A DNA stretch of 64,000 nt, taken from positions 192,001-256,000 of the forward strand of contig CAWJKV010000002.1 of the NCBI GenBank assembly GCA_963843555.1, in the 5' to 3' direction. Shown here piece by piece: positions 19,910-37,500 of this stretch (positions are counted from its first letter, which is position 1; the number at the start of each line of letters is the position of its first letter). The position numbers and the translations under genes are program-made. Under the pieces are notes generated by a model. It saw only the letters and a program-made list of their open reading frames with translations. It was not told where the DNA came from and ran no database searches. The DNA is from an uncultured Methanosarcinales archaeon. GTDB taxonomy: Archaea > Halobacteriota > Methanosarcinia > Methanotrichales > Methanotrichaceae.

Positions 19910-22000
19910 TCATTCATTCGGTCGCCCTGGAAGATATGTTTCCCCAACAATCTTCTCCGCTGCTCGGAAAGCAAATGCAGCTATCAGCATAGTAGGATTT
20001 ACTCCCGGCGACTCCGGCAGAACGGATCCATCGACTACAAACATGTCGGGATACACTTTGACTTTGTCAGGTGTGCCGTCGTTCCAAAAGACCTGGCCGT
20101 AGCTGTTGACCGCTCCTTCATCCATATTGGCGCCCATGGGACATCCGCCAAGAGGATGAAGAATTACTGCCGTGCTGCTCTTGGGATCCTTGAAATTCCA
20201 GAAGGGAGTATAGACCCTATTTGCACCACCGGCATCCATCTCTCCTGCCAGCTTTTTCATTCCGTCAACAGTAGCCTTAAGAACCTGGTTGTTATCTGCC
20301 GCCGGCCATTTGACGAATATCTTCTCGCCTGGATCGTTCGTGGTCTCCAGGTCTTTCCACTTGGGTTTGAGGCTAATGGATCCTGACTTTTCACCTCTGC
20401 CCATTCCCGAAAAGGCGTAGAACCTGGAGATGCGCTCCTCAGGAGACGCAAATGGATCGGTACGGTCGGTTGAGACCCAGGTCAGCAGTGCTTCCATGAA
20501 ATTTCGTGTGGATTCGTCCTTTGCAGTGCCGGTTTTGAGGATATCAACCAGGACCTTCCTGGCTGAAGGATCGTTCCAAATGGTGGTGAACAGACGAACC
20601 AGTGATGTGGTGGATATGCCCCCTGATAGGATGCCCAAAACCCCGAATTTGAACAGTAAATTCAGGTCCTTAGTCAGATCATCCAGGTGGTTTAGATTTA
20701 CTTCCTTTGCGCCATGAGCGAGCAGTTCCAACATCGTTGCAACAAGTGGTGCGACCATCTTGGGAAGAGTCGTGTCTTCAATGGCAAAAGCGAAATCGTT
20801 GCCCCCGGTCTTAAAAGAGACATACGATGTATTTATGGGCCCTCGGGTCACATCCAGTGTTCTGTGCTCCAGGGTCATGAACCCGAAGATGTCGCCATTT
20901 GTTACGAATCTTGTACCCAGTGCTTTGCTCAATTTGAGGCTGCCTCTTGCAGAGCACTTCAGGAGCAGCTCTGTAGAACCCAGTGAGCCTGCCGCGATTA
21001 TTAACGACCTGGCGAGGACATATTTCTGCGTTCTTTGCTCAGTTTTAGGATCGTACTGGAAGTATTTTATCTTATACTGATATTCGTCCCCTTCTTTGAA
21101 TTCGATATCATAAACTTCACACAGCTCGCGAACCTCCATGGGCTTGGGCTTTTTGGGTGGCTCAGGATTTATGGCGTCGAATAGCTGATGGCTGAAAGTA
21201 TGTCTGGCATTGGGAACGCACCCCAGAACGCATCGCCCCTGTCGCTGGCAGACGTTTTCCTGGCTTTTCAGTAGCCTCTTGAGCTCATCAAGGGGCGGAT
21301 TTGAGGCATCAAATAGGCCTGCTGGGACATTAGTTGTCGTTAGATCCAGATCGAAATCCCCTACCAATTTACCGTCTTCGTTTTTGACGTTGACAATATC
21401 GGTGTTCCCGCCATCGATCAGCGCCTGGCCGGCATCCTGAAAGGCTTTTGTCTTTTCTAGCAGGTTTCGGCTTAGACCGGCATTGGTTGTTATCCTGTTC
21501 ACGACAAGAAATTGCAAAACCTTATCGAAATAGTCTTCAAGTTTCTTGCCCTCAAATTGGGTCGGCCAGTTCTTGTAAACGCTGCTAGGCGGCTCGAGTG
21601 TGACATTGGAATAAACCAGAGAACCGCCACCTACACCACTGGCCTGTATTGAATGTACGTTGCCTAAAACCTTGTAATCGTAAAGCCCTGTCTTGGAGAG
21701 CGTTCTATTGGCAGACAGGAGTTCCAGAAGACCGGAAGTGTTATCCGGATGGGGCCAGAAGTGATAGGGCCTGCCGTTATCTTCAAGAAATTCGCGCATG
21801 TTGGGGGACGTCTTTCTGCTTGCTTTGGGAACGAAATTCATCTCATGGGAGAGCCACCATTGTCCTCGTTCGAAGACACAAACCTTTTTGTCGGTACCAT
21901 TTTTGGTGTTATCATCCTGGAACTTATTCGCAAGAGACAAGGCGAGTATGGTCCCTCCGAATCCTGAGCCCACAACCACCGCCTCGAAATTATCAGTCAT
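19910..22000 (-). CDS. GMC oxidoreductase, cholesterol-oxidase-like
   Basis: VVGSGFGG, ERG, GVGGGSLVYSNV, C..QGRC..GC, HPLGGC, VVDGS, GVNP. Confidence 0.88.
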   Translation of the reverse strand: MTDNFEAVVVGSGFGGTILALSLANKFQDDNTKNGTDKKVCVFERGQWWLSHEMNFVPKASRKTSPNMREFLEDNGRPYHFWPHPDNTSGLLELLSANRTLSKTGLYDYKVLGNVHSIQASGVGGGSLVYSNVTLEPPSSVYKNWPTQFEGKKLEDYFDKVLQFLVVNRITTNAGLSRNLLEKTKAFQDAGQALIDGGNTDIVNVKNEDGKLVGDFDLDLTTTNVPAGLFDASNPPLDELKRLLKSQENVCQRQGRCVLGCVPNARHTFSHQLFDAINPEPPKKPKPMEVRELCEVYDIEFKEGDEYQYKIKYFQYDPKTEQRTQKYVLARSLIIAAGSLGSTELLLKCSARGSLKLSKALGTRFVTNGDIFGFMTLEHRTLDVTRGPINTSYVSFKTGGNDFAFAIEDTTLPKMVAPLVATMLELLAHGAKEVNLNHLDDLTKDLNLLFKFGVLGILSGGISTTSLVRLFTTIWNDPSARKVLVDILKTGTAKDESTRNFMEALLTWVSTDRTDPFASPEERISRFYAFSGMGRGEKSGSISLKPKWKDLETTNDPGEKIFVKWPAADNNQVLKATVDGMKKLAGEMDAGGANRVYTPFWNFKDPKSSTAVILHPLGGCPMGANMDEGAVNSYGQVFWNDGTPDKVKVYPDMFVVDGSVLPESPGVNPTMLIAAFAFRAAEKIVGETYLPGRPNE

Positions 22001-22099
22001 AGGGTTAAATTGTGCGCTGAAGATATTTAGATGTAGCGAATTTTGCATACCGGCAAGCATAAGTTAGCGAAATGCAATACTGTATGCTGAAGCGGTTTG

Positions 22100-24648: not shown

Positions 24649-25431
24649 TTGAGATGCAATCGATGCAAGATTCAATCATATCTTATTGATCTTGATGGTG
24701 TTCTTTATGTGGGCAAGAATCCCGTTCCCGGGGTCAGGGAGTGCCTGGAGAAGGTGGAAGAGAGTGGATACGGCATAAGATTTGTCTCCAACTCAACGCG
24801 CAGATGTCGAGGCTCAGTAGCTATGCGCCTCAAGGGCCTGGGATACGATATTCCTTCGAATAGTATCTTCACACCATCATTGAGGGCTATCGAATACATG
24901 AAGAAATCAGAAAGAGAAAGATGCTTCCTGCTTACCGCTGGAGATGTCTTCAGGGATTTCGAGGATGCCAAGATTCGCACAAGTGAAGAGGATGTGGACT
25001 ATGTAGTCGTGGGGGATGCCGGCAATGGCTTTACCTTTGAGCGCTTAAATCAGGCCCTGCGTCTGATCTTGGACGGGGCTGATATCCTGGCCCTGGAGAT
25101 GGATAGATACTGGAAAGAGCCGGAAGGGCTGGTTTTATCCGCAGGTCCTTTTGTTGCGGCTCTCGAATATGCCTCAGGAAAAAAGGCAGAGCTGATGGGT
25201 AAACCGTCTCCGGAATTCTTCCAAATGGCTCTGAACGACCTGGAGGTTGGGCCCAAAGATGCTGCAATGGTTGGAGATGATATCCTGACCGATGTGCTGG
25301 GAGCTCAGAAGATGGGCATGCAGGGAATTCTGGTCAAGACAGGCAAGTATCGCGAGGATCTGGCAGCCAGCTCTGGCGTTTTGCCCGATTTAGTTCTGGA
25401 GTCGCTGGCTGGCCTTGCCAGGCACATTTGA
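24649..25431 (+). CDS. HAD-IIA hydrolase (LHPP/HDHD2-like)
   Basis: IDLDGVLY, SNS, GKPS..FF, MVGDD...DV.GA, VKTGKY. Confidence 0.9.
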   Translation: MRCNRCKIQSYLIDLDGVLYVGKNPVPGVRECLEKVEESGYGIRFVSNSTRRCRGSVAMRLKGLGYDIPSNSIFTPSLRAIEYMKKSERERCFLLTAGDVFRDFEDAKIRTSEEDVDYVVVGDAGNGFTFERLNQALRLILDGADILALEMDRYWKEPEGLVLSAGPFVAALEYASGKKAELMGKPSPEFFQMALNDLEVGPKDAAMVGDDILTDVLGAQKMGMQGILVKTGKYREDLAASSGVLPDLVLESLAGLARHI

Positions 25432-25442
25432 AGAATTCAGAT

Positions 25443-27735
25443 TCAGCCTCTTCGATTCTTTATGATCTGTTCATATGCATCTGCGGCAGGAGTTCTCTTA
25501 CGAGTCAATGCTGGATCATGATCCAGATCGATGTTATACAGCCCGAAATCACTGGCATCATTAAACTCAAGATCCCATTCCCGGTTGGATGTTATGGCCC
25601 AATAGAGATAGGCATCTACCTTCATTCCGTCCTTTATTGCTCTTTGTACCTGCAACACATGCTCTCGAATATATTTTACCCTCTCCCATCCGTCTGCTAC
25701 CTTTACTGAGCCATTTTCGCATATGACTATAGGATGATTTGGGAATTTTTGGTTCAGATCTTTCAAAATATCGTAGAGAGCTCCAGGCCAGACCGGCGCC
25801 TGATCGAAGCGCTTGTAAGAAGCATCTATCAATCGTTGAATACGCTCAATGTGCAGGCTCGATATGCCCCAATAATAATCCAGGCCGACGAAGTCCATCT
25901 TCTTTTCGCAACCATGAGGACACAGATATTCTTCCAGCTCACCCGCCATGCCCATATACCACCAATTGGTTAACATAATTGTGGATAGGATCGTGTATTG
26001 CCTGAAGGTCCAATCGAGCAGGCTCGGCACGGGCTCCACTGCGGTCATGCGATTCTGAATGGCCACGGATTTTAGCTGAACTTTCTCTGAATTGCCAAAT
26101 ATCCTCTCTGCCAGGGCATGGGCCAGGTCGATCTCGAGCCCCTCAAGATCGCCCGTTTCGGGGTTGCGGTATCCGAAGCCGGGAAGGTCTTCTCTGACTG
26201 CGACGACCAGGTGGCCACGATCCTGTATGCGACGCAGAGCTGTTCCTGTAGGGGCTTTGGGTACGGGCTCTTTTGGTAACGGCTCTTTGGCTTCTTCGTG
26301 CCGTGCCAACGAAGCTTTTGGGCTGGATTCGCCAAATGCAAGCCTTCGAGCAGACCTCAAGGGCTTCTCAATCGCAAGACCCGTGATTTTCTCGTATTTG
26401 TCCCTCCATTGCGCCGTCTCTGCCGACTCATTGAAGTCTCTAATAACGGAATTGACCACCTTCAGCAGTCCGCTGTCGCCCTTGGCAATCGCTGCTGCAT
26501 ATTTTTCACTGCTTGTTGGTTGCAGCTCAATGATCCTGTATCTCCCAGGGTGTTGCACTATCAGCCCGGAAAGGATTGTATTGTCGGAAAGAAGGGCGAC
26601 GTTTCCCATCTGGTCAAGGTATCGTAGATGCCTTCGGATAATCGTCCAGGACTATGGATTGAGAATCCTTTAGGAGTAGTGGGAGGTTTTTCTCCGCTGT
26701 AGTTCCCTTGACCACAACAATCTCTCCCGTCAGGTCCTGGACGCTCGCCACACCGCTGCCGGACTCTACTAAGAGCTGCTGGCGGGTTATGAAATAATCA
26801 TCGGAGAATGCAACCTGCTCTTCGCGTTCGGGGGTCCTGGTTAGAGCTGCCAGGACAACATCTGGTTTGTTCTTATCCGAGACATTAGCCCTAAGTCTAC
26901 TGATTCTGTCCCCTCTGATCAGGTCTCGCTTCAGAGCCAGGCGATCTGCCTGTTTTTGCAGGTCCTTGTCTCCCTTTATGACCGATGCATTTCTGTTGAC
27001 GAGCTTCTGCAACCATAAAGGCAAACCGAAGAAATACTGATTAGCGCCTATCAGGGCATGCGGATTTTCGGCTTTGATGATCTCATATGCTCTCTTATGG
27101 GATAAAAACAGGTTGCGAATCAGTTTGCCTACTTCATCCATCTGTTCAGTCGTCGAAGTGCCCGCAGCGAGGCCAGGAGGAGCGGCGTAATATTCGTCCC
27201 ACCAGGGCTTGAGGTAACCGCCCATCAATAGATTCGGTTCGTTGAAGGTGATCCAGTAGGGCACATCTTTGGCAAAGTGCCTGGCTACCTCACTCACGTA
27301 ATTAGCAAATATATCCGGAAATCCTTCCGCCGTCATTCCTCCGCGTTCTTGCACATGTACCGGCCAGGTGAAGTGGTGGAGCGTCAATACCGGCTTCATA
27401 TGGCAAGAGATGATCTTGGCAATCAGCTTTCTATAGTGTTCAATGGCTTCCTGGTTGAACTGGCCCGGCGCAGGTTCAATGCGAGACCAGGCGATTGAGA
27501 AGCGAAATGCTGAACAACCGAGCTTCTCTGCTATGTCAATATCCTCCCCATACCGATGCCAAAAGTCAGTAGCCTTTCCTCGCGCTGCTTTGGGATCACG
27601 CATCCCCTCCCACCAGTCACGGATGTCAACACATTTTGAGTTAAAAGCCTCGCATTGATGATCTGCAGTGGCAACTCCAAATATGAAAGAATCCGGAAGA
27701 GGAGGATGGTCGCCTTTATTGAACAAACCTGCCAA
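25443..27735 (-). CDS. GH1 glycoside hydrolase with inserted SBP_bac_3-like domain; frameshift near 26615
   Basis: FIFGVATADHQCE, FRFSIAWSRIEP, LHHF, ITFNEP, DFVGLDYY, ICENG, YLYW, FGLY; amino-acid-binding motifs lie between them. Confidence 0.85.
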
Positions 27736-27889
27736 AGACTCTTTTATTGTCGTCTCCCATCAACCCCTATCAATCGATCCGCTTATGTCCGCTTATAATT
27801 GAGCGAATACTATCTGATTATATTTTAATCCTTCTGCTTGACAGAACGAAAACTCGATTAAATCATCCAAAAGGAGTTTTATGATCTAT

Positions 27890-29570: not shown

Positions 29571-29860
29571 GATGTCCGAGCCACGACCGTCGGGCGGGCG
29601 GCTCATTTCTTGCTCAGCAGATGCAGGACTGGTCGCTGACAGAGCCGCTGGGCAACAATCCACTTTCAGCTTGACGTTTCATCTGCGCCTACTGATTTAA
29701 CTTCAGAAAAATCCTCATTAGATCTGGCTTCCGTAACATAGTGCTCTAGAACCCGCCATATTCGAGTGATTGGGAAAAATGTCGGGAGTTCGAGAGAAGG
29801 GCTCCTGGCATGCGAAAGCCTTTTATTGCTACGTTTGAATCTAGCCCTGGTGGGGTCAGT

Positions 29861-30418
29861 ATGAAGACTGCATTTGCAGTAGTGGTGGCATTACTAATAG
29901 CATGCCTTTTGGCCGCGGGCTGTTTTGCCCAGAGCACGAGCCGTTTCCAGGGTGTGGGTGGAGACTACGGTAGAAACGTATTAAATAGCCTGAATGCTTC
30001 AAATCCCCAGCCGACTGCAGCAAGCAATAGCAATAACAGCCTGTGGAATTGGGGAGGCGCGCCCAAAGGAAGAATATTGATCGATGGTAATCTCATTGGC
30101 GATCCCAGATACACAATGAAGAATCTCAGCGTTACAAACAACTGGCTGGGCGATTCACTCGTGGACCCGTATGGGGACACTCCTGCTTATTCCTATACAG
30201 ATCCAGTAACTGGCAAGCCGGTTAAGACCTATGTGGACCCGAACACCGGGCAGACTTACTACACATATACAGATTCCAAGACGGGAAGACTGGTTTACGT
30301 CTACTTCAACCCTGAGACTGGGGAGCCGACGTATGCAAGCTTTACTCCCATTTCCGGCCAGTATGTAGAACAGGAGCAGTTTGCTCTGCCGCCGATCTTC
30401 AGATCCAGTGGTCTCTGA
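29861..30418 (+). CDS. Exported hypothetical protein with YxDPxTG repeats
   Basis: Signal peptide, FQGVGGDYG, LWNWGGAPKG; paralogue of the next gene. Confidence 0.75.
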   Translation: MKTAFAVVVALLIACLLAAGCFAQSTSRFQGVGGDYGRNVLNSLNASNPQPTAASNSNNSLWNWGGAPKGRILIDGNLIGDPRYTMKNLSVTNNWLGDSLVDPYGDTPAYSYTDPVTGKPVKTYVDPNTGQTYYTYTDSKTGRLVYVYFNPETGEPTYASFTPISGQYVEQEQFALPPIFRSSGL

Positions 30419-30470
30419 AATGCGAAAGCCTTTTATCGTGCTGCACTAATGTTAGAATGGTGGGTTCAGA

Positions 30471-30944
30471 ATGAAGACTGCTTTAGCAGTAATGGTGATG
30501 ACAATAGCTTGTCTCTTGGTGCTGGACTGCTCCGCACAAAGCATGGGCAGTTTCCAGAGTGTGGGTGGAGATTTCGGCAAAAATGTGCTGACCAGCCTGA
30601 ATGCTCCGAATTCCCAATCGAATGCTACAAATGCAACTAACGCGACCAACGCAACGAGCGATAATAACAGCCTGTGGAACTGGGGAAGTGTGCCCAAGGG
30701 AAGCCTGCTGGCGAATGGAAAGCTCGTAGCTGATCCATTCAATACCTGGATGTCTACCGATTTCGCCAACAGCGGGATGGCTCAGGTTGGAGTCGATCCT
30801 TATAAAGGATATCCGATCTATGCCTACGAAGTTCCCAATACTGGCGAGACCAAGTATTTCTATATGGATCCTTTGACCGGTGAGCCATTCTATCTGGAAG
30901 GGTATAATGGCGCTGTTGCTCCAGATACAGCCCCAGAGTGGTAG
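30471..30944 (+). CDS. Exported hypothetical protein, paralogue with NAT repeats
   Basis: FQSVGGDFG, (NAT)4, LWNWGSVPKG. Confidence 0.75.
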   Translation: MKTALAVMVMTIACLLVLDCSAQSMGSFQSVGGDFGKNVLTSLNAPNSQSNATNATNATNATSDNNSLWNWGSVPKGSLLANGKLVADPFNTWMSTDFANSGMAQVGVDPYKGYPIYAYEVPNTGETKYFYMDPLTGEPFYLEGYNGAVAPDTAPEW

Positions 30945-31940: not shown

Positions 31941-33800
31941 ATGAAGACACAAAACAGTAAGAAGGCCACCTCTAACCTGAGGCAGCACACCGAGAATAAG
32001 GTGACGGGAGAAGGGACAATCGACCTCGCTTTCTGAGGCGGATGTGAGGGCGTTCTGTCACGAGCTCGAGGTCCACCAGATCGAACTGGAGATGCAAAAT
32101 GAGGAGCTCAGGCGGGTGCAGGCTGAGCTTGCCGCATCGGAGGAGAAGTACCGCGACCTCTACGAGTTCGCGCCCATCGGCTACTTCACCCTTGAATCGT
32201 CAGGGCAGATTCGAGAGGCAAATCTCGCCGGCGCTTCTCTCCTGGGAGTGGAGCGATCCTGCCTGGTGAACAACCGGTTCCAGTCCCATCTTGACCAGAG
32301 GAGTCTTCCGGAGTTCAATGACTTCTGCCGCCGTGTGATGGAGTCGGATGCTAAGCAGACGGCAATGTTCCGGCTTAATGGCACGGCAAGAAAAGAGAAA
32401 GCTGAACTCTGGGTGCTGATTGAAGCCCGGGCGATCCAGGATGGAATCAGCCACGGCTTCAGGATGGCGGTCATCGACATCACAGAGCGCAAGCGAATGG
32501 AAGAAGAGATAATGGAGAGGACTGCAGAGCTGGTGTTGGCCAAAGAGAATGCAGAGGCTACAACCAGGACCAAGGCAGCGTTCCTGGCCAACATGTCCCA
32601 TGAACTCAGGACGCCCATGAACGCAGTGATTGGATTCTCCGGCCTCCTCCTGGAAGAATCCATGACTGCAGAGCAGAATGAGTTCATCGAAGGCATCAGG
32701 AAAGGAGGCGAAGCTCTCCTGGCCATAATCAATGATATCCTGGATTTCTCCCGGGTGGAAAAAGAGATGGGGCTGGAACGGAGCATCAACCGTTCAGCCT
32801 CAAGGACTGCATCGATGAGTCCCTGGACCTGGTGGCGGTCCAGGCCAGCAATAAGGGTCTCTCTCTGTCCAGCATCATCTTTGACGGCACTCCGGAGGCC
32901 ATCGTCGGAGACCATGGCAGGCTCAGACAGATCCTGGTCAACCTGCTCGCCAACGCCGTCAAGTTCACAGACATGGGAGATGTATCTGTGTCGGTCTCCT
33001 CAAAAACCCTCGAAGATAACAGGCACGAGCTATCCTTTAAGGTTACGGATACCGGCATTGGCATACCCCAGGACAGGATAAACGAAATCTTTGAGCCGTT
33101 TACGCAGGTTGAACGGAATGCAAGACGCAAGCGTGAAGGTGTTGGCCTGGGCCTGGCCATATCCAGGCAGCTTGTGGAGCTCATGGGCGGGAAGATAAAA
33201 GCCGAGAGCGTTCCCGGCCGGGGCACGACCTTTAGCTTCTCAATCCAGGCCGAGACACTTCAAGGCAGACAGCTTGATTCTGGAGAAAAAAAGAAGGAAG
33301 CATCCTTTGAGGTCGCTCCCAAAGGGAAATCTTTACGGGTACTCGTGGCTGAAGACGACCCGCTGAACCAAAAAGTGCTCATGGAGATGCTAAAGCGATT
33401 AGGCTGCAAGCCAGAGGCTGTGTATGATGGTCTGGAAGTCCTCCAGGCCCTGCAAAGCCAGGATTACGATCTGGTGCTGATGGATCTCAGTATGCCGGAA
33501 ATGGATGGGATCACTGCCACTCAGGCGATACGAAAAATTCGGCCAGGGAACGGGCCCAGGATTGTTGCCGTCACAGCCTATGCTCTTAAGGGCGACCGCG
33601 AGAAGTGTCTCGAAGCCGGCATGGACGACTACATCAGCAAACCGGTACAAAAGAAGGAGCTGGAAGCCATTCTGAGGAATATTCATGCCTTCGGAAAGAC
33701 TGCTGAGCTGCTTATCGTGGAAATATTGAAGATATTACTATTGATATTGTCAAAGTGTCTTATTGAAATTGATTTTCCATCTTCCGGCCAAAGGAAGTAA
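31941..33800 (+). CDS. PAS-HisKA-HATPase-REC hybrid histidine kinase, frameshifted
   Basis: [60 protein letters not shown]. Confidence 0.9.
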
Positions 33801-33809
33801 ATACGATTA

Positions 33810-33828
33810 TGCTATCATTTTGATATCA
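33810..33828. promoter_or_regulatory. FitA-type operator TGCTATCA-N3-TGATATCA
   Basis: Imperfect IR 10 nt upstream of the RHH antitoxin start. Confidence 0.6.
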
Positions 33829-33838
33829 AGGAGGCGTT

Positions 33839-34069
33839 ATGGCCCAGATCATTGTGCGAAATCTTGACGAGGCCGTAGTTGATCGGCTAAAGGCCCGCGC
33901 TAGAACTAATGACCGTTCCCTGGAAGCAGAAGTAAGGCTTATCCTGGAACAATCGGCCAAAGTGGATACGGTTCAGGCTCGCCAGATAGTAATGGAGAGG
34001 CGCAAAAAGCTGCAAGGAAGGGAGTTTGTTGATAGCGTTGATCTGATACGCGAGGACAGAGATAGATGA
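33839..34069 (+). CDS. FitA-like ribbon-helix-helix antitoxin
   Basis: MAQIIVRNLDE.V..RLKARA...RSLEAEVR.IL. Confidence 0.9.
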   Translation: MAQIIVRNLDEAVVDRLKARARTNDRSLEAEVRLILEQSAKVDTVQARQIVMERRKKLQGREFVDSVDLIREDRDR

Positions 34070-34500
34070 TAATAGTAATCGATGCCAGCGTAGCTGCAAA
34101 GTGGTTCTTCGATGAAGAACACTCTATGGCGGCTCTAAATCTCCTAGACAATCCTTTTGAGCTTAACGCACCTGATTTCTTCTTTCTGGAAATGAACAGC
34201 CTCCTCTGTAAGAGAGCTCGTCGCCTGGAGCTATCCACCACAGAGGCATTCGAGATGGACGACGAGATCGGATCCATGCCGATTCAATCCTATCCGTCAA
34301 CAGCACTGCGAGAGAGAGCATTTGAGCTGGCTCTGGAAACGAAAAGCAGCATCTACGACTGCCTTTATCTGGCACTCGCCGAAGTGCTTGAGGCGAAAAT
34401 GATCACAGCCGATAGAAAATTTTTCCAGGCGATGCAGACAGTTCCTGCAGGCCGTCGAACGATCTGGGTAGAAGATGTTGAAATTGGTCTTGAGAAATGA
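34066..34500 (+). CDS. vapC: VapC/PIN toxin
   Basis: IVIDASVAAKW, IYDCLYLALA, ITAD; ATGA overlap. Confidence 0.9.
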   Translation: MIIVIDASVAAKWFFDEEHSMAALNLLDNPFELNAPDFFFLEMNSLLCKRARRLELSTTEAFEMDDEIGSMPIQSYPSTALRERAFELALETKSSIYDCLYLALAEVLEAKMITADRKFFQAMQTVPAGRRTIWVEDVEIGLEK

Positions 34501-34586
34501 CAGGCATTTCTGAGTTAGACTTCACTGACAGCCGCCGGGAACGGGTGACTTGATGGATCAAATGGCCGAGAAGGGGACCCTGCCTG

Positions 34587-37500
34587 ATGCAGGATCAAGA
34601 ACCGAAGAAAGAAGAATTGGGAAAAACCCAGGCGGAAGAGCCGGAGGAGGGCCCTCTCGCAGTCGTCGGCATTGGGGCCTCAGCCGGCGGCCTGGAGGCT
34701 TTAAAAGAGTTCTTCACACACATGCCTGCAAAGAGCGGGATGGCGTTCGTCGTCATCTCTCACCAGGATCCGGCACAGACCAGCCTTCTGCCCGAGATCC
34801 TCCAGAGGTACACCGAGATGCCCGTAGTTGAGGTCGGTGAGGATGGAGTGCAAGCCAGGCAAAACACAGTCTATACCAAGCCTTCAGACTCCGACCTCGC
34901 AATCTTCCATGGTAGACTTGTCCTCCTCAAATCCGCCAGGGCAGGCGGAGTGGAAACGACCGTCGATATCTTCTTCAGGCACCTCGCAGAGGACCGGGAC
35001 GGAAAGGCAGTGGGCATAATCCTATCCGGCATGGGGGACGATGGAACTTTGGGCATCCAGGCCCTGAAAGAGTATACTGGCATGGCCATGGCCCAGGACC
35101 CGTCTACAGCCAAGTTCGGGTCCATGCCTCAGAGCGCGATTGCCACCGGGCTGGTGGATTACATCGCTCCTGCCGAGGACCTTCCACGACCGCCTTATTG
35201 AATATATCAGCACCAGGTCGCAGCTAATGCAGGTGCGCCCCATTCAGACAGAGACCCCGGTTCCTGAGAACGCCCTGTCCAGGATCTTCGCCCTTAATTC
35301 GCACCAAGACCCAGCCAGGACTTCTCCCAGTACAAGCGAAGCACTGTCATGCGAAGAATCGAGCGCAGGATGAGCCTGCACCAGCTGACCCGGATGGATG
35401 ACTACATCCGCTACCTCCAGGAGAATCCGCCAGAGGTCGAGATTCTGGCAAAGGAGATGCTCATTGGAGTCACTCAGTTCTTCCGGGACCCCGCTGCCTG
35501 GGAGCGACTTATGCCCGCGCTTTCAGCTCTGATTCAATCCAAACCCGAAGGCAGCATGCTGAGAGTCTGGATAGTGGGCTGCTCAACAGGGGAGGAGGCA
35601 TACACAATGGCCATTATGCTCCAGGAGTACCTCGAGTTCCCTGGGCAAGGTTGGAATTATCCAGTTCCAGATCTTTGCCACGGATACCGATCGAGAGGCC
35701 ATCGATATAGCACGGAGTGGGAAAGTATCCGGCAAACATCGAGGTGGATGTCTCTCCCGCGCGGCTGGAACACTTCTTCACCAGAGAGAACGGGACCTAT
35801 CAGATCAGCGAACGCCTGAGAGAGAACGTGATCTTTGCTCCTCACAATATCATCAGTGATCCGCCGTTCACCCGCCTGGACGTTCTATCCTGCCGGAACC
35901 TCATGATTTACCTGTCCACAGAACTGCAAAAGAAGCTCATTCCGCTCTTCCATTACGCACTGAACCCCGGTGGAATTCTCTTCCTCGGGACTGCTGAATC
36001 GATCGTCGGGTACAAAGACCTCTTCAGGGCTCTGGACAGCAAATGTAAGATCTTCCAGAGGAGCGACGTTCTCACCCATGACGGCCCTGGTGAGCTGCCT
36101 ACGGTATTTGCAGCACCGCTTATCTGCACATGAAGCTCAGGCGTTCCCTGCTGTGGCTAAAGGGCCTTCCATCACCGCGATTGCCCAGGAACAGCTGCTT
36201 GAGAGGTTTGCTCCGCCTGCAGTCATTGTCACCGAGAAGGGCGATATTGTTTACTTCCACGGACATACCGGACCAGTATCTGGAGCCGTCCCCGGGGAAA
36301 GGCAAACCTGAACATCTTTGCCATGGCCCGGGAGGGCCTGAGGTACTCCATACTCTCTGCCCTCCGCACTGCATCCAGAGAGAGTGCGCGAGGTCGGAGC
36401 GGAAGAGCTGATAAGAACGGAGAGCGGGCCAAAAAGGGTCCGCATGACAGTGCAGCCGATACCAAAGCGTCCCAGAATGGCGAATCTCTTCATGGTGACA
36501 TTTGAAGAGGTCCAGGAACCCGAGCCCATGCAGACTCAGGCCGCAGAGCCGGGCAGAGAAGCGCATCTTGCCGGATGCGCGCATTGCAGAGCTGGAGAGA
36601 GAGCTTGTCGATGCCAGAGCACAGTTGCAGCACATGGCCGAGGATATGCAGTCCTCTCAGGAGGAACTGACCAGCATGAATGAGGAGCTCCAATCTGCGA
36701 ATGAGGAACTCCAGAGTACGAACGAGGAGCTGACCACAAGCAAAGAGGAGCTCCAATCGATGAATGAGGAGATGCTCACAGTGAACGCCGAGCTCCAGGC
36801 CAAGATCGAGGAGCTGACCCACAACCAGGACGATATGCGTAACCTGCTGCAGGGCACAAGGATACCCGTTGCTCTTCCTGGACAAAGATCTCCAGGTGCG
36901 TCGGTTCACAGATGAAGCGAAACAGGTCGTCCGACTGATCGAGAATGATATCGGCCGCCCAATCACAGACCTCAAGAGCGAACCTGCTGGATGAGTCCTT
37001 TGCCAGAGATTTGCGAGAGGTGCTGGACACGTCTGCAGTCCAGAGAGAAACAGGTAGAAGACGACTGAAGGGAAATGGTTTCAGATGCGGATCCTGCCCT
37101 ACCGCACCTCCGAGAACCGCATCGATGGCCTGGTCGTCACGTTCAGCGATATCACGGAGATCAAGCAGCTTGAGCATGTCCATTCAGGATGCACGTAACT
37201 ATGCCGAGAACATCATTGCGACCGTCATGGAACCCCTTGTGGTGCTGAACGCTGATTTGAGGGTCGTCTCCGTGAACCGATCGTTCTATACCACATTCAA
37301 AGTAACCCCTGAGGAGACGGAAGGAGAGCTCCTGTTACTCCATTGGAAATGGCCAATGGGATTTGCCGGAGCTCCGCCATCTTCTCGACAGATATTCTTG
37401 AAAAGGATACCGAGTTTGAAGGATTCAAGATAGAGCAGGACTTCCCAGGGATCGGACACCGCACCATGTTGCTGAATGCCCGGAGAATCCATTCCGATCT

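Follow-up and report, generated by a model that had tools for sequence, protein, structure and literature searches.

A GH1 glycosidase of methanogens and bacteria with a circularly permuted amino-acid-binding domain between its catalytic glutamates

The window, that is, the whole analysed stretch of 64,000 nucleotides of archaeal DNA, carries on its minus strand a gene in which a circularly permuted SBP_bac_3 domain (positions 26871-26040; SBP below) is built into a GH1 glycosidase between the two catalytic glutamates. This architecture is real and conserved and, as far as our literature searches reach, undescribed. No description of a GH1-SBP fusion was found in the literature searched, which took in few subscription journals, and the accessible main text of a review on SBP signalling contains none of the strings "fused", "hydrolase" and "permut" (PMC8050422); sequence databases annotate both domains automatically. 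Taking all the data together, we regard it as an even call whether the protein is a cytoplasmic glycosidase of the type acting on lipophilic glycosides, modulated by glutamate or aspartate through a permuted clamshell after strand 6 of the barrel. The parts of the gene and one of its neighbours are as follows.

25443-27735, minus strand: whole GH1-SBP fusion gene, about 763 codons, in two frames in the present assembly
27022-27699, minus strand: GH1 N-terminal half, barrel strands 1-6 (PF00232 4-218, E 1.5e-38)
26875-27021, minus strand: helices specific to the subfamily that lead into the insert; uninserted members (L077, for example) have them too
26382-26871, minus strand: SBP piece 1, the normally C-terminal 165 residues, comprising part of lobe 1 and all of lobe 2
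26627-26629, minus strand: single surplus base interrupting the frame, in all probability introduced by the assembly
26250-26381, minus strand: Pro/Lys-rich linker from the native C-terminus of the SBP to its N-terminus, variable and of low pLDDT
26040-26249, minus strand: SBP piece 2, the normally N-terminal 70 residues (PF00497 1-55)
25926-26039, minus strand: exit helix, moderately hydrophobic, with an NWW motif; it rejoins the GH1 helix after strand 6 and aligns with BGPh from residue 224 onward
25446-25925, minus strand: GH1 C-terminal half with Y618, the nucleophile E670, W709, E716, W717 and F727 (PF00232 335-451, E 1.7e-16)
19910-22060, minus strand: cholesterol-oxidase-like GMC oxidoreductase, 3.4 kb downstream of the fusion gene

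The gene is read in two pieces on the minus strand, an ORF of 373 aa at 27735-26614 and one of 388 aa at 26609-25443, along which Pfam finds, in this order, PF00232 4-218, PF00497 55-98, PF00497 1-55 and PF00232 335-451, so that the split and reversed PF00497 matches anticipated in an earlier note on this DNA are indeed present and flanked by PF00232. The two catalytic motifs named there also lie on either side of the SBP insert, TFNEP with the acid/base glutamate at 27240-27238 and ICENG with the nucleophile at 25718-25716. Residue numbering throughout is that of P0001, a metagenomic protein of 760 aa that serves as an intact stand-in for the window gene and agrees with its first frame at 95% over residues 1-366 and with its second at 91% over residues 365-760, both without gaps. 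The catalytic glutamates are 507 residues apart in P0001 (E163 and E670) versus 169 in BGPh, a membrane-bound GH1 beta-glycosidase from Pyrococcus horikoshii (E155 and E324); about 277 of the extra residues form the SBP and about 60 the helices common to uninserted subfamily members. The start of the window gene is probably the TTG at 27735, since the GTG start of two relatives (L012 and L013) reads ACG at 27753 here. A tblastn search found no paralogues of the fusion gene in the genome of the window, PF00497 had no matches beyond the two pieces in that genome, which is 82% complete, and no transporter genes were seen by eye next to the gene in the ORF list of the window.

The GH1 part is clearly recognizable. 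Its halves score 132.8 and 60.2 bits with PF00232 against a gathering cut-off of 22.6, and in the AF2 model of whole P0001 (pLDDT 86.6, pTM 0.83) the barrel is predicted to close around the insert, superimposing on BGPh (1VFF) with Z 41.8 and rmsd 3.1 over 381 residues spanning 6-760 of the model; Foldseek with the whole model returned GH1 structures only. The N-terminal half carries Q24, H118 and the N162-E163 acid/base motif. Among the best 120 of 600 relatives, H118, N162, E163, Y618, E670, W709, E716, W717 and F727 are each found in all 120, and Q24 in 116, the other four having gaps. BGPh was both the best single-domain sequence match (E 1.1e-43) and the best structural match, and it shares the TLHHFT, NEP and ENG motifs with the window protein; BGTl, a steryl glucosidase, is its relative. 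BGPh differs in having no insert and is 30% identical, and the window subfamily adds a D22-R715 pair and extra helices around the insertion site. As judged by sequence, the fusion protein is best read as a retaining beta-glycosidase of the cytoplasm, belonging to a GH1 subfamily that has no name and lies close to BGPh. By eye, no signal peptide was visible in the N-termini of 20 relatives, as the earlier note had held for the window protein. For comparison with the BGPh type, which is marked by a hydrophobic mound, membrane association and a preference for long-chain aglycones, the most hydrophobic 19-residue stretch (566-584) has a mean hydropathy of only 0.86.

The subfamily stands apart from the curated GH1 models. 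No NCBIfam model passes its cut-off for this subfamily, and the TIGR03356 BGL equivalog cut-off of 478.5 is missed by P0001 (195.1) and by the uninserted L077 (194) alike. Loss of the glycone-binding Glu before Trp is one criterion for a 6-phospho-beta-glycosidase, besides the score with the curated models; this assignment was rejected, E716 being kept in all of the best 120 of 600 relatives and the scores reaching at most 142.6 bits versus curated values of 561-686. Asp22 (window 27663) and Arg715 (25583, in TSNREW) occur in 69 of 74 members and in none of 33 outgroup GH1s; the two may pair as a salt bridge next to the glycone site, or else make a pocket that accepts an anionic sugar.

The permutation of the inserted domain follows from the comparison of a profile built from 53 inserts with SBP structures. 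Profile positions 2-167 correspond to residues 75-240 of the glutamate-bound 5EYF of E. faecium and positions 199-270 to its residues 4-75, and GlnH (6H1U) is likewise covered at residues 110-280 and then 35-111. The two pieces thus tile one domain with a single cut, because both structures are matched completely, in swapped order; the native ends are closed by a variable linker of about 40 residues. With PF00497 the pieces score 33.1 and 33.2 bits (cut-off 26.4), and 5EYF is the top SBP structure by profile (E 9e-59), GlnH and PEB1a being within the top seven. The circular permutation proposed earlier is thereby borne out by the profile and by Pfam. Modelling points in the same direction: the insert of L012 alone gave pLDDT 88.1 and pTM 0.87 in AF2, with 94-97 for piece 2. 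The structural match of the insert model, found with Foldseek and VIA-align, both of which are sequential aligners, covers residues 1 to about 175 at Z of about 14. Since a floating second piece would be unlikely to give such a pTM, the two pieces are predicted to fold into one bilobed domain, and the pTM gives no sign of the failure to assemble that the earlier note had envisaged as a refutation. Lobe 2 comprises residues 33-124 of the insert model (6GPM match), and both junctions lie on lobe 1, 3-10 residues from ligand-contacting side chains: R559 stands three residues before the exit junction, positions 294 and 296 (T294/T296, with A294 in methanogens) follow just after the entry junction, T296 at about 10 residues.

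A probable origin of this topology is suggested by tandem SBP-SBP proteins. A search of representatives brought up two tandem SBP proteins. In P0164 and P0261 the middle part runs colinear with the insert and contains the linker as well; residues 269-545 of P0051 align with 135-418 of P0164 (40% identity over 285 columns, E 9e-62). By sequence, a tandem SBP-SBP gene is the probable source of the permutation, its middle having been kept through duplication and trimming, and P0164 would fit a feasible type of donor, not the donor itself. Tandem SBPs, including SBD1-SBD2 of GlnPQ (6H30), keep their outer ends and form two domains, and the insert model fits 6H30 only with an rmsd as large as 19.6. 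Members of the methanogen clade have an additional 14 residues or so at the entry junction (window 26875-26925), resembling the SBP helix that bears the equivalent of R559; BLAST aligns them to P0164 and P0261, and their Arg is poorly conserved. They may be a partial duplicate or a chance likeness.

The residues of the binding site have been retained to a large extent. According to the accessible text on GlnH, S164, R169 and D250 hold the ligand's amino and carboxyl groups, and R147, W232 and T162 contact the side chain of Asp or Glu, R147 binding its carboxylate (PMC6069109). Profile alignment makes T296 the equivalent of S164, R301 of R169, D381 of D250, R559 of R147, Y363 of W232 and position 294 of T162; the window has T, R, D, R and Y at 296, 301, 381, 559 and 363 and A at 294. 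Four of these residues lie in piece 1 (T296 at 26841, R301 at 26826, Y363 at 26640 and D381 at 26585), and piece 2 ends right after R559 (26051-26049). In the best 120 of 600 relatives, R559 is invariant, R301 is found in 119, D381 is Asp in 119 and Glu in one, T296 is Thr in 115 and Ser in four, Y363 occurs in 99, and position 294 is Thr in 72, Ala in 36, Asn in 10 and another residue in two, so that five of the six GlnH ligand positions are kept or conservatively replaced in most rows; for comparison, the mean column conservation in the insert is 0.61-0.72. In the Verrucomicrobiota clade the linker is short, and several ligand positions have changed. Between the window and L012, dN/dS is 0.21 and 0.16 for the SBP pieces and 0.19 and 0.16 for the GH1 halves, and the SBP pieces of nine of 10 other pairs stay at or below 0.18. 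Purifying selection on both pieces is therefore seen in 10 of 11 pairs, the exception being L057/L065 (0.47 for piece 1), a pair of low divergence. These alignments support an intact site of the Asp/Glu type, from which we infer that the domain binds L-Glu or L-Asp.

Homologues with the same arrangement are numerous. A search for longer relatives yielded 600 proteins at E of 0.001 or below among 5379 candidates, and all of the best 120 examined have the order GH1N, SBP-C, SBP-N, GH1C. A GTDB scan with two patterns from the GH1 part confirmed 447 stretches, of which 70 loci were looked at: 34 in Cyanobacteriota, 14 in Verrucomicrobiota, 10 in Chloroflexota, six in Methanobacteriota and six in others, spanning Methanotrichaceae, Nostocales, Chloroflexota and Verrucomicrobiota. 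The full domain order lies within one ORF in 59 of the 70, and the rest are split, cut by a contig end, divergent (L076) or insert-free (L077); hence the 447 stretches include insert-free members. The search for homologues of the same architecture, which had been proposed with the first description, has therefore succeeded. The clusters returned by the ESM Atlas were all of the same architecture or GH1, some with both Pfam families. An Anaerolineae homologue (L079:7899-12740, 1614 aa) has a KAP-family P-loop NTPase fused at its C-terminus; this single case could be a read-through or an assembly artefact.

When a quick tree was computed from only the GH1 columns of 74 of 107 rows, the subfamily formed one clade with SH-aLRT 100, and P0001 falls into a 10-row clade (100) with a Methanosaeta protein, nested among bacterial sequences with moderate support. 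The gene is present in eight of 105 genomes of the window's family, Methanotrichaceae, and was not found in 40 other genomes of a first draw of relatives searched with the 3' ORF. The protein had been called unexpected in a methanogen; this is explained by a probable transfer, the family being mostly bacterial, so that methanogens likely received the gene from bacteria. Seven insert-free members are scattered on the quick tree, where the insert needs six changes; an AU test did not reject a single origin without full loss of the insert (p 0.11). As judged by eye, P0137, whose sister in the tree (99) bears the insert, seems to have lost lobe 2 and to retain just a degenerate lobe 1; its GLP and NWW motifs are 186 residues apart, whereas full inserts have 275-394 residues there and members without an insert 55-108.

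The substrates may be lipophilic glycosides (alkyl, steryl or other lipid glycosides), the aglycone of which would be processed by adjoining oxidases, lipases and patatins; we put this forward tentatively, as somewhat less probable than its opposite. According to the accessible text of the source, BGPh is membrane-associated and prefers long alkyl glucosides, and a close relative cleaves steryl glucosides (PMC4687101); an identity of 30% to BGPh is too low for transferring substrate specificity. The neighbouring genes agree with it in part. Of the 447 stretches, the 70 loci studied include 35 with a GMC, lipase-like, patatin or P450 gene; a GMC oxidoreductase is found in 21 (16 cyanobacterial, three of Chloroflexota, one of Dormiibacterota and one of a methanogen). 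These GMCs are mostly cholesterol-oxidase-like, this being the best NCBIfam model for the seven scanned, far below its cut-off. Since there are several divergent types, mutually only 22-34% identical, a repeated association is suggested, though most cases come from related Nostocales. Each of the four cyanobacterial genomes inspected, which were chosen with adjacency known or suspected, has a single cholesterol-oxidase-like GMC, at a distance of 1-10 kb from the gene, and the insert-free L077 lies beside two GMCs and a patatin. A universal link with GMCs was rejected: none occurs in the 14 Verrucomicrobiota loci, and five of five other host genomes gave no match. The GMC of the window, a cholesterol-oxidase-like flavoprotein of 716 aa in a methanogen, occurs in nine of the 105 family genomes, and only four of the eight family genomes with the fusion gene, which are kin and not independent, also have it; it is possibly linked in function to the fusion gene and does not form one operon with it.

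Other neighbours were recorded as well. A second Nostocales arrangement upstream of the gene (L018-L020, L024, L027-L030, L035, L038 and L039) consists of a lipase-like hydrolase, an unknown protein of 490 aa, a RoxA-like cytochrome c, a P450 and an AHL-lactonase-like MBL enzyme, and looks like an uncharacterised pathway cluster. A GT28/UDPGT glycosyltransferase lies immediately upstream in an Acidobacteriota locus (L043:6642-7931), and GH31 genes occur near the fusion gene in two cyanobacteria (L056:4844-7210 and L057:10211-12577). On the plus strand of the window, 29810-30944 encodes a pair of short, mutually similar proteins side by side, whose N-termini look like signal peptides; the first gives no more than a weak PepSY match (E 0.074).

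How the SBP might act on the enzyme can be considered from the positions of the junctions. The permuted clamshell of the Asp/Glu type sits in the loop after barrel strand 6. R559 and T296 flank the junctions, so a bound amino acid would bridge both junction segments; in the proposed mechanism, the ligand could hold these segments to each other and thereby give order to the helices that line the way in for the substrate. As the models place both junctions on lobe 1, closure of the clamshell would not directly separate them, which counts against a simple lever, and the coupling is not geometrically obvious. By an alternative route, lobe 2 would swing relative to the substrate entrance; by neither route would the barrel be pulled apart. 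Cytoplasmic glutamate is in the millimolar range. GlnH, as given in the accessible text of the review mentioned above, binds Asp with a Kd of 5 uM and Glu with a Kd of 15 uM (PMC8050422). In the cytoplasm, saturation of a micromolar site would be expected, and the SBP could work as a sensor only with a weakened site, which the permutation together with the change of Thr to Ala or Asn could supply. The enzyme can do without the insert, because seven members lack it and P0137 keeps only lobe 1. Against modulation speak the changed ligand positions in Verrucomicrobiota and the Ala of methanogens at the equivalent of GlnH T162. In our opinion, the chances that binding of Glu or Asp modulates hydrolysis, in the manner of the ligand gating proposed in the earlier note, are about even. 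For the wider picture, they are slightly below even: a natural switch of several phyla, built just as engineers build theirs, in which a permuted clamshell from a tandem SBP within a TIM-barrel glycosidase would gate hydrolysis of glycolipids or steryl glycosides by amino-acid status. Transfer would have passed it on among soil and wetland cyanobacteria, Chloroflexota, Verrucomicrobiota and methanogens, and lineages would show retuning, loss of a lobe and full loss of the sensor.

It may be asked whether the SBP switches anything at all. It could bind Glu or Asp constitutively, as a stabilising or oligomerising module the removal of which usually harms the fold and which decays in some lineages. 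The placement of both junctions on one lobe, the insert-free and lobe-1-only members, the drift of ligand residues in Verrucomicrobiota and the saturation of a tight site by cytoplasmic glutamate would all suit such a module. The clean insert-free forms mean, on the other side, that the domain can be lost, and still purifying selection has preserved the whole bilobed domain with its polar cleft residues in several phyla; we consider this explanation rather unlikely. In GH1 enzymes, the loop that received the insertion frames the aglycone entrance, and the SBP could thus recruit a substrate or product, namely a glycosylated or acylated amino-acid conjugate held in the clamshell by its Asp or Glu part, with which the lactonase-like, hydrolase, P450 and oxidase neighbours, fitting small-molecule processing, would agree. 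Against this, T296, D381 and R301, which serve the alpha-amino and alpha-carboxyl group of a free amino acid, and R559, which serves the side-chain carboxylate, have all been retained, and the ligand of GlnH, described in the accessible text as buried between the lobes, leaves little space for a conjugate (PMC6069109); a recruiting role is unlikely in our view.

Doubts of another kind arise from the assembly, in which the gene is broken. The break is one extra base at 26627-26629; the earlier figure of about 26615 marks the stop codon that ends the first ORF. We aligned contigs of four public runs, for the most part 90-97% similar to the window, with the gene, and the base at 26627 or 26629 is absent from those of all four runs. 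A protein 92% identical to the window's, P0001, is intact as well. In a control set of 126 ORFs of at least 200 aa from 200 kb of a congener, some of which may be antisense shadows, 14 of 66 orthologues in the window's genome are frameshifted (22 shifts over 69,780 nt) and eight more contain a stop. With about one frameshift in every 3.2 kb of coding DNA, the odds for a gene of 2.3 kb are roughly even, and the break is probably an assembly error. Histidine-kinase-like and CheB/CheR-like genes, recognized by eye at window 32044-37433, are also broken into several frames, which fits this rate of indels. The surplus base, the ACG in place of the relatives' start codon and the split genes in six other loci of 70 (L013, L015, L047, L067, L069 and L080) could indicate that, with the family as described, the window's own copy has recently become a pseudogene or yields two separate proteins; given this error rate, the related contigs lacking the base and the dN/dS of 0.16-0.21 on both sides of the break (linker excluded), which gives no sign of relaxed selection downstream, we hold this to be very unlikely. 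A chimeric assembly or a chance similarity has next to no probability. No single contig of the four runs spans the whole gene, but each SBP/GH1 junction is bridged, because two contigs cross them separately: X2 covers 26251-27792 with a single gap and X6 covers 25400-26626. A chimera was also rejected on the strength of intact single-ORF homologues of the same order in many independent assemblies, including a complete chromosome (L018, from Chlorogloeopsis fritschii PCC 6912), and the fusion reported in the earlier note is real.

Each part of the fusion has known counterparts. 5EYF, GlnH and PEB1a (2V25) cover the whole domain and have the same ligand residues as the insert, and GlnH, in the accessible text, also acts as a sensor (PMC6069109). 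Such Asp/Glu SBPs are exported and have the native order, unlike the window domain, which is permuted at residue 75 of 5EYF, has no export signal and lies inside an enzyme. PF00497-type domains are reused in MltF and in the ligand-binding domains of ionotropic glutamate receptors, both weak matches here. In MltF the SBP is joined end-to-end in native order, in the receptors it is interrupted by the channel, and to our knowledge neither has a permuted SBP inside an enzyme. Engineered PBP switches (MBP-beta-lactamase, xylanase-XBP and a permuted GltI in RFP) have the same topology of permutation plus insertion, and the accessible text on the last describes it as a working glutamate sensor (PMC6335823). 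These are artificial, however, with the output mostly inside the PBP, whereas here the host is natural, a catalytic TIM barrel, and the coupling is putative.

GH1 is among the best-studied enzyme families, yet the fusion is undescribed in the literature searched. If the coupling is real, it would be a case of natural allostery arising by permutation and domain insertion, for which a comparison set is at hand, consisting of the probable tandem-SBP donor, insert-free sisters and a half-deleted intermediate, and it would provide a glutamate/aspartate reporter readable with cheap chromogenic substrates. The finding also points to an uncharacterised oxidase-lipase-patatin-glycosidase cluster in heterocystous cyanobacteria. 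If the proposed control is true, it would link amino-acid (nitrogen) status to the turnover of glycosides and glycolipids.
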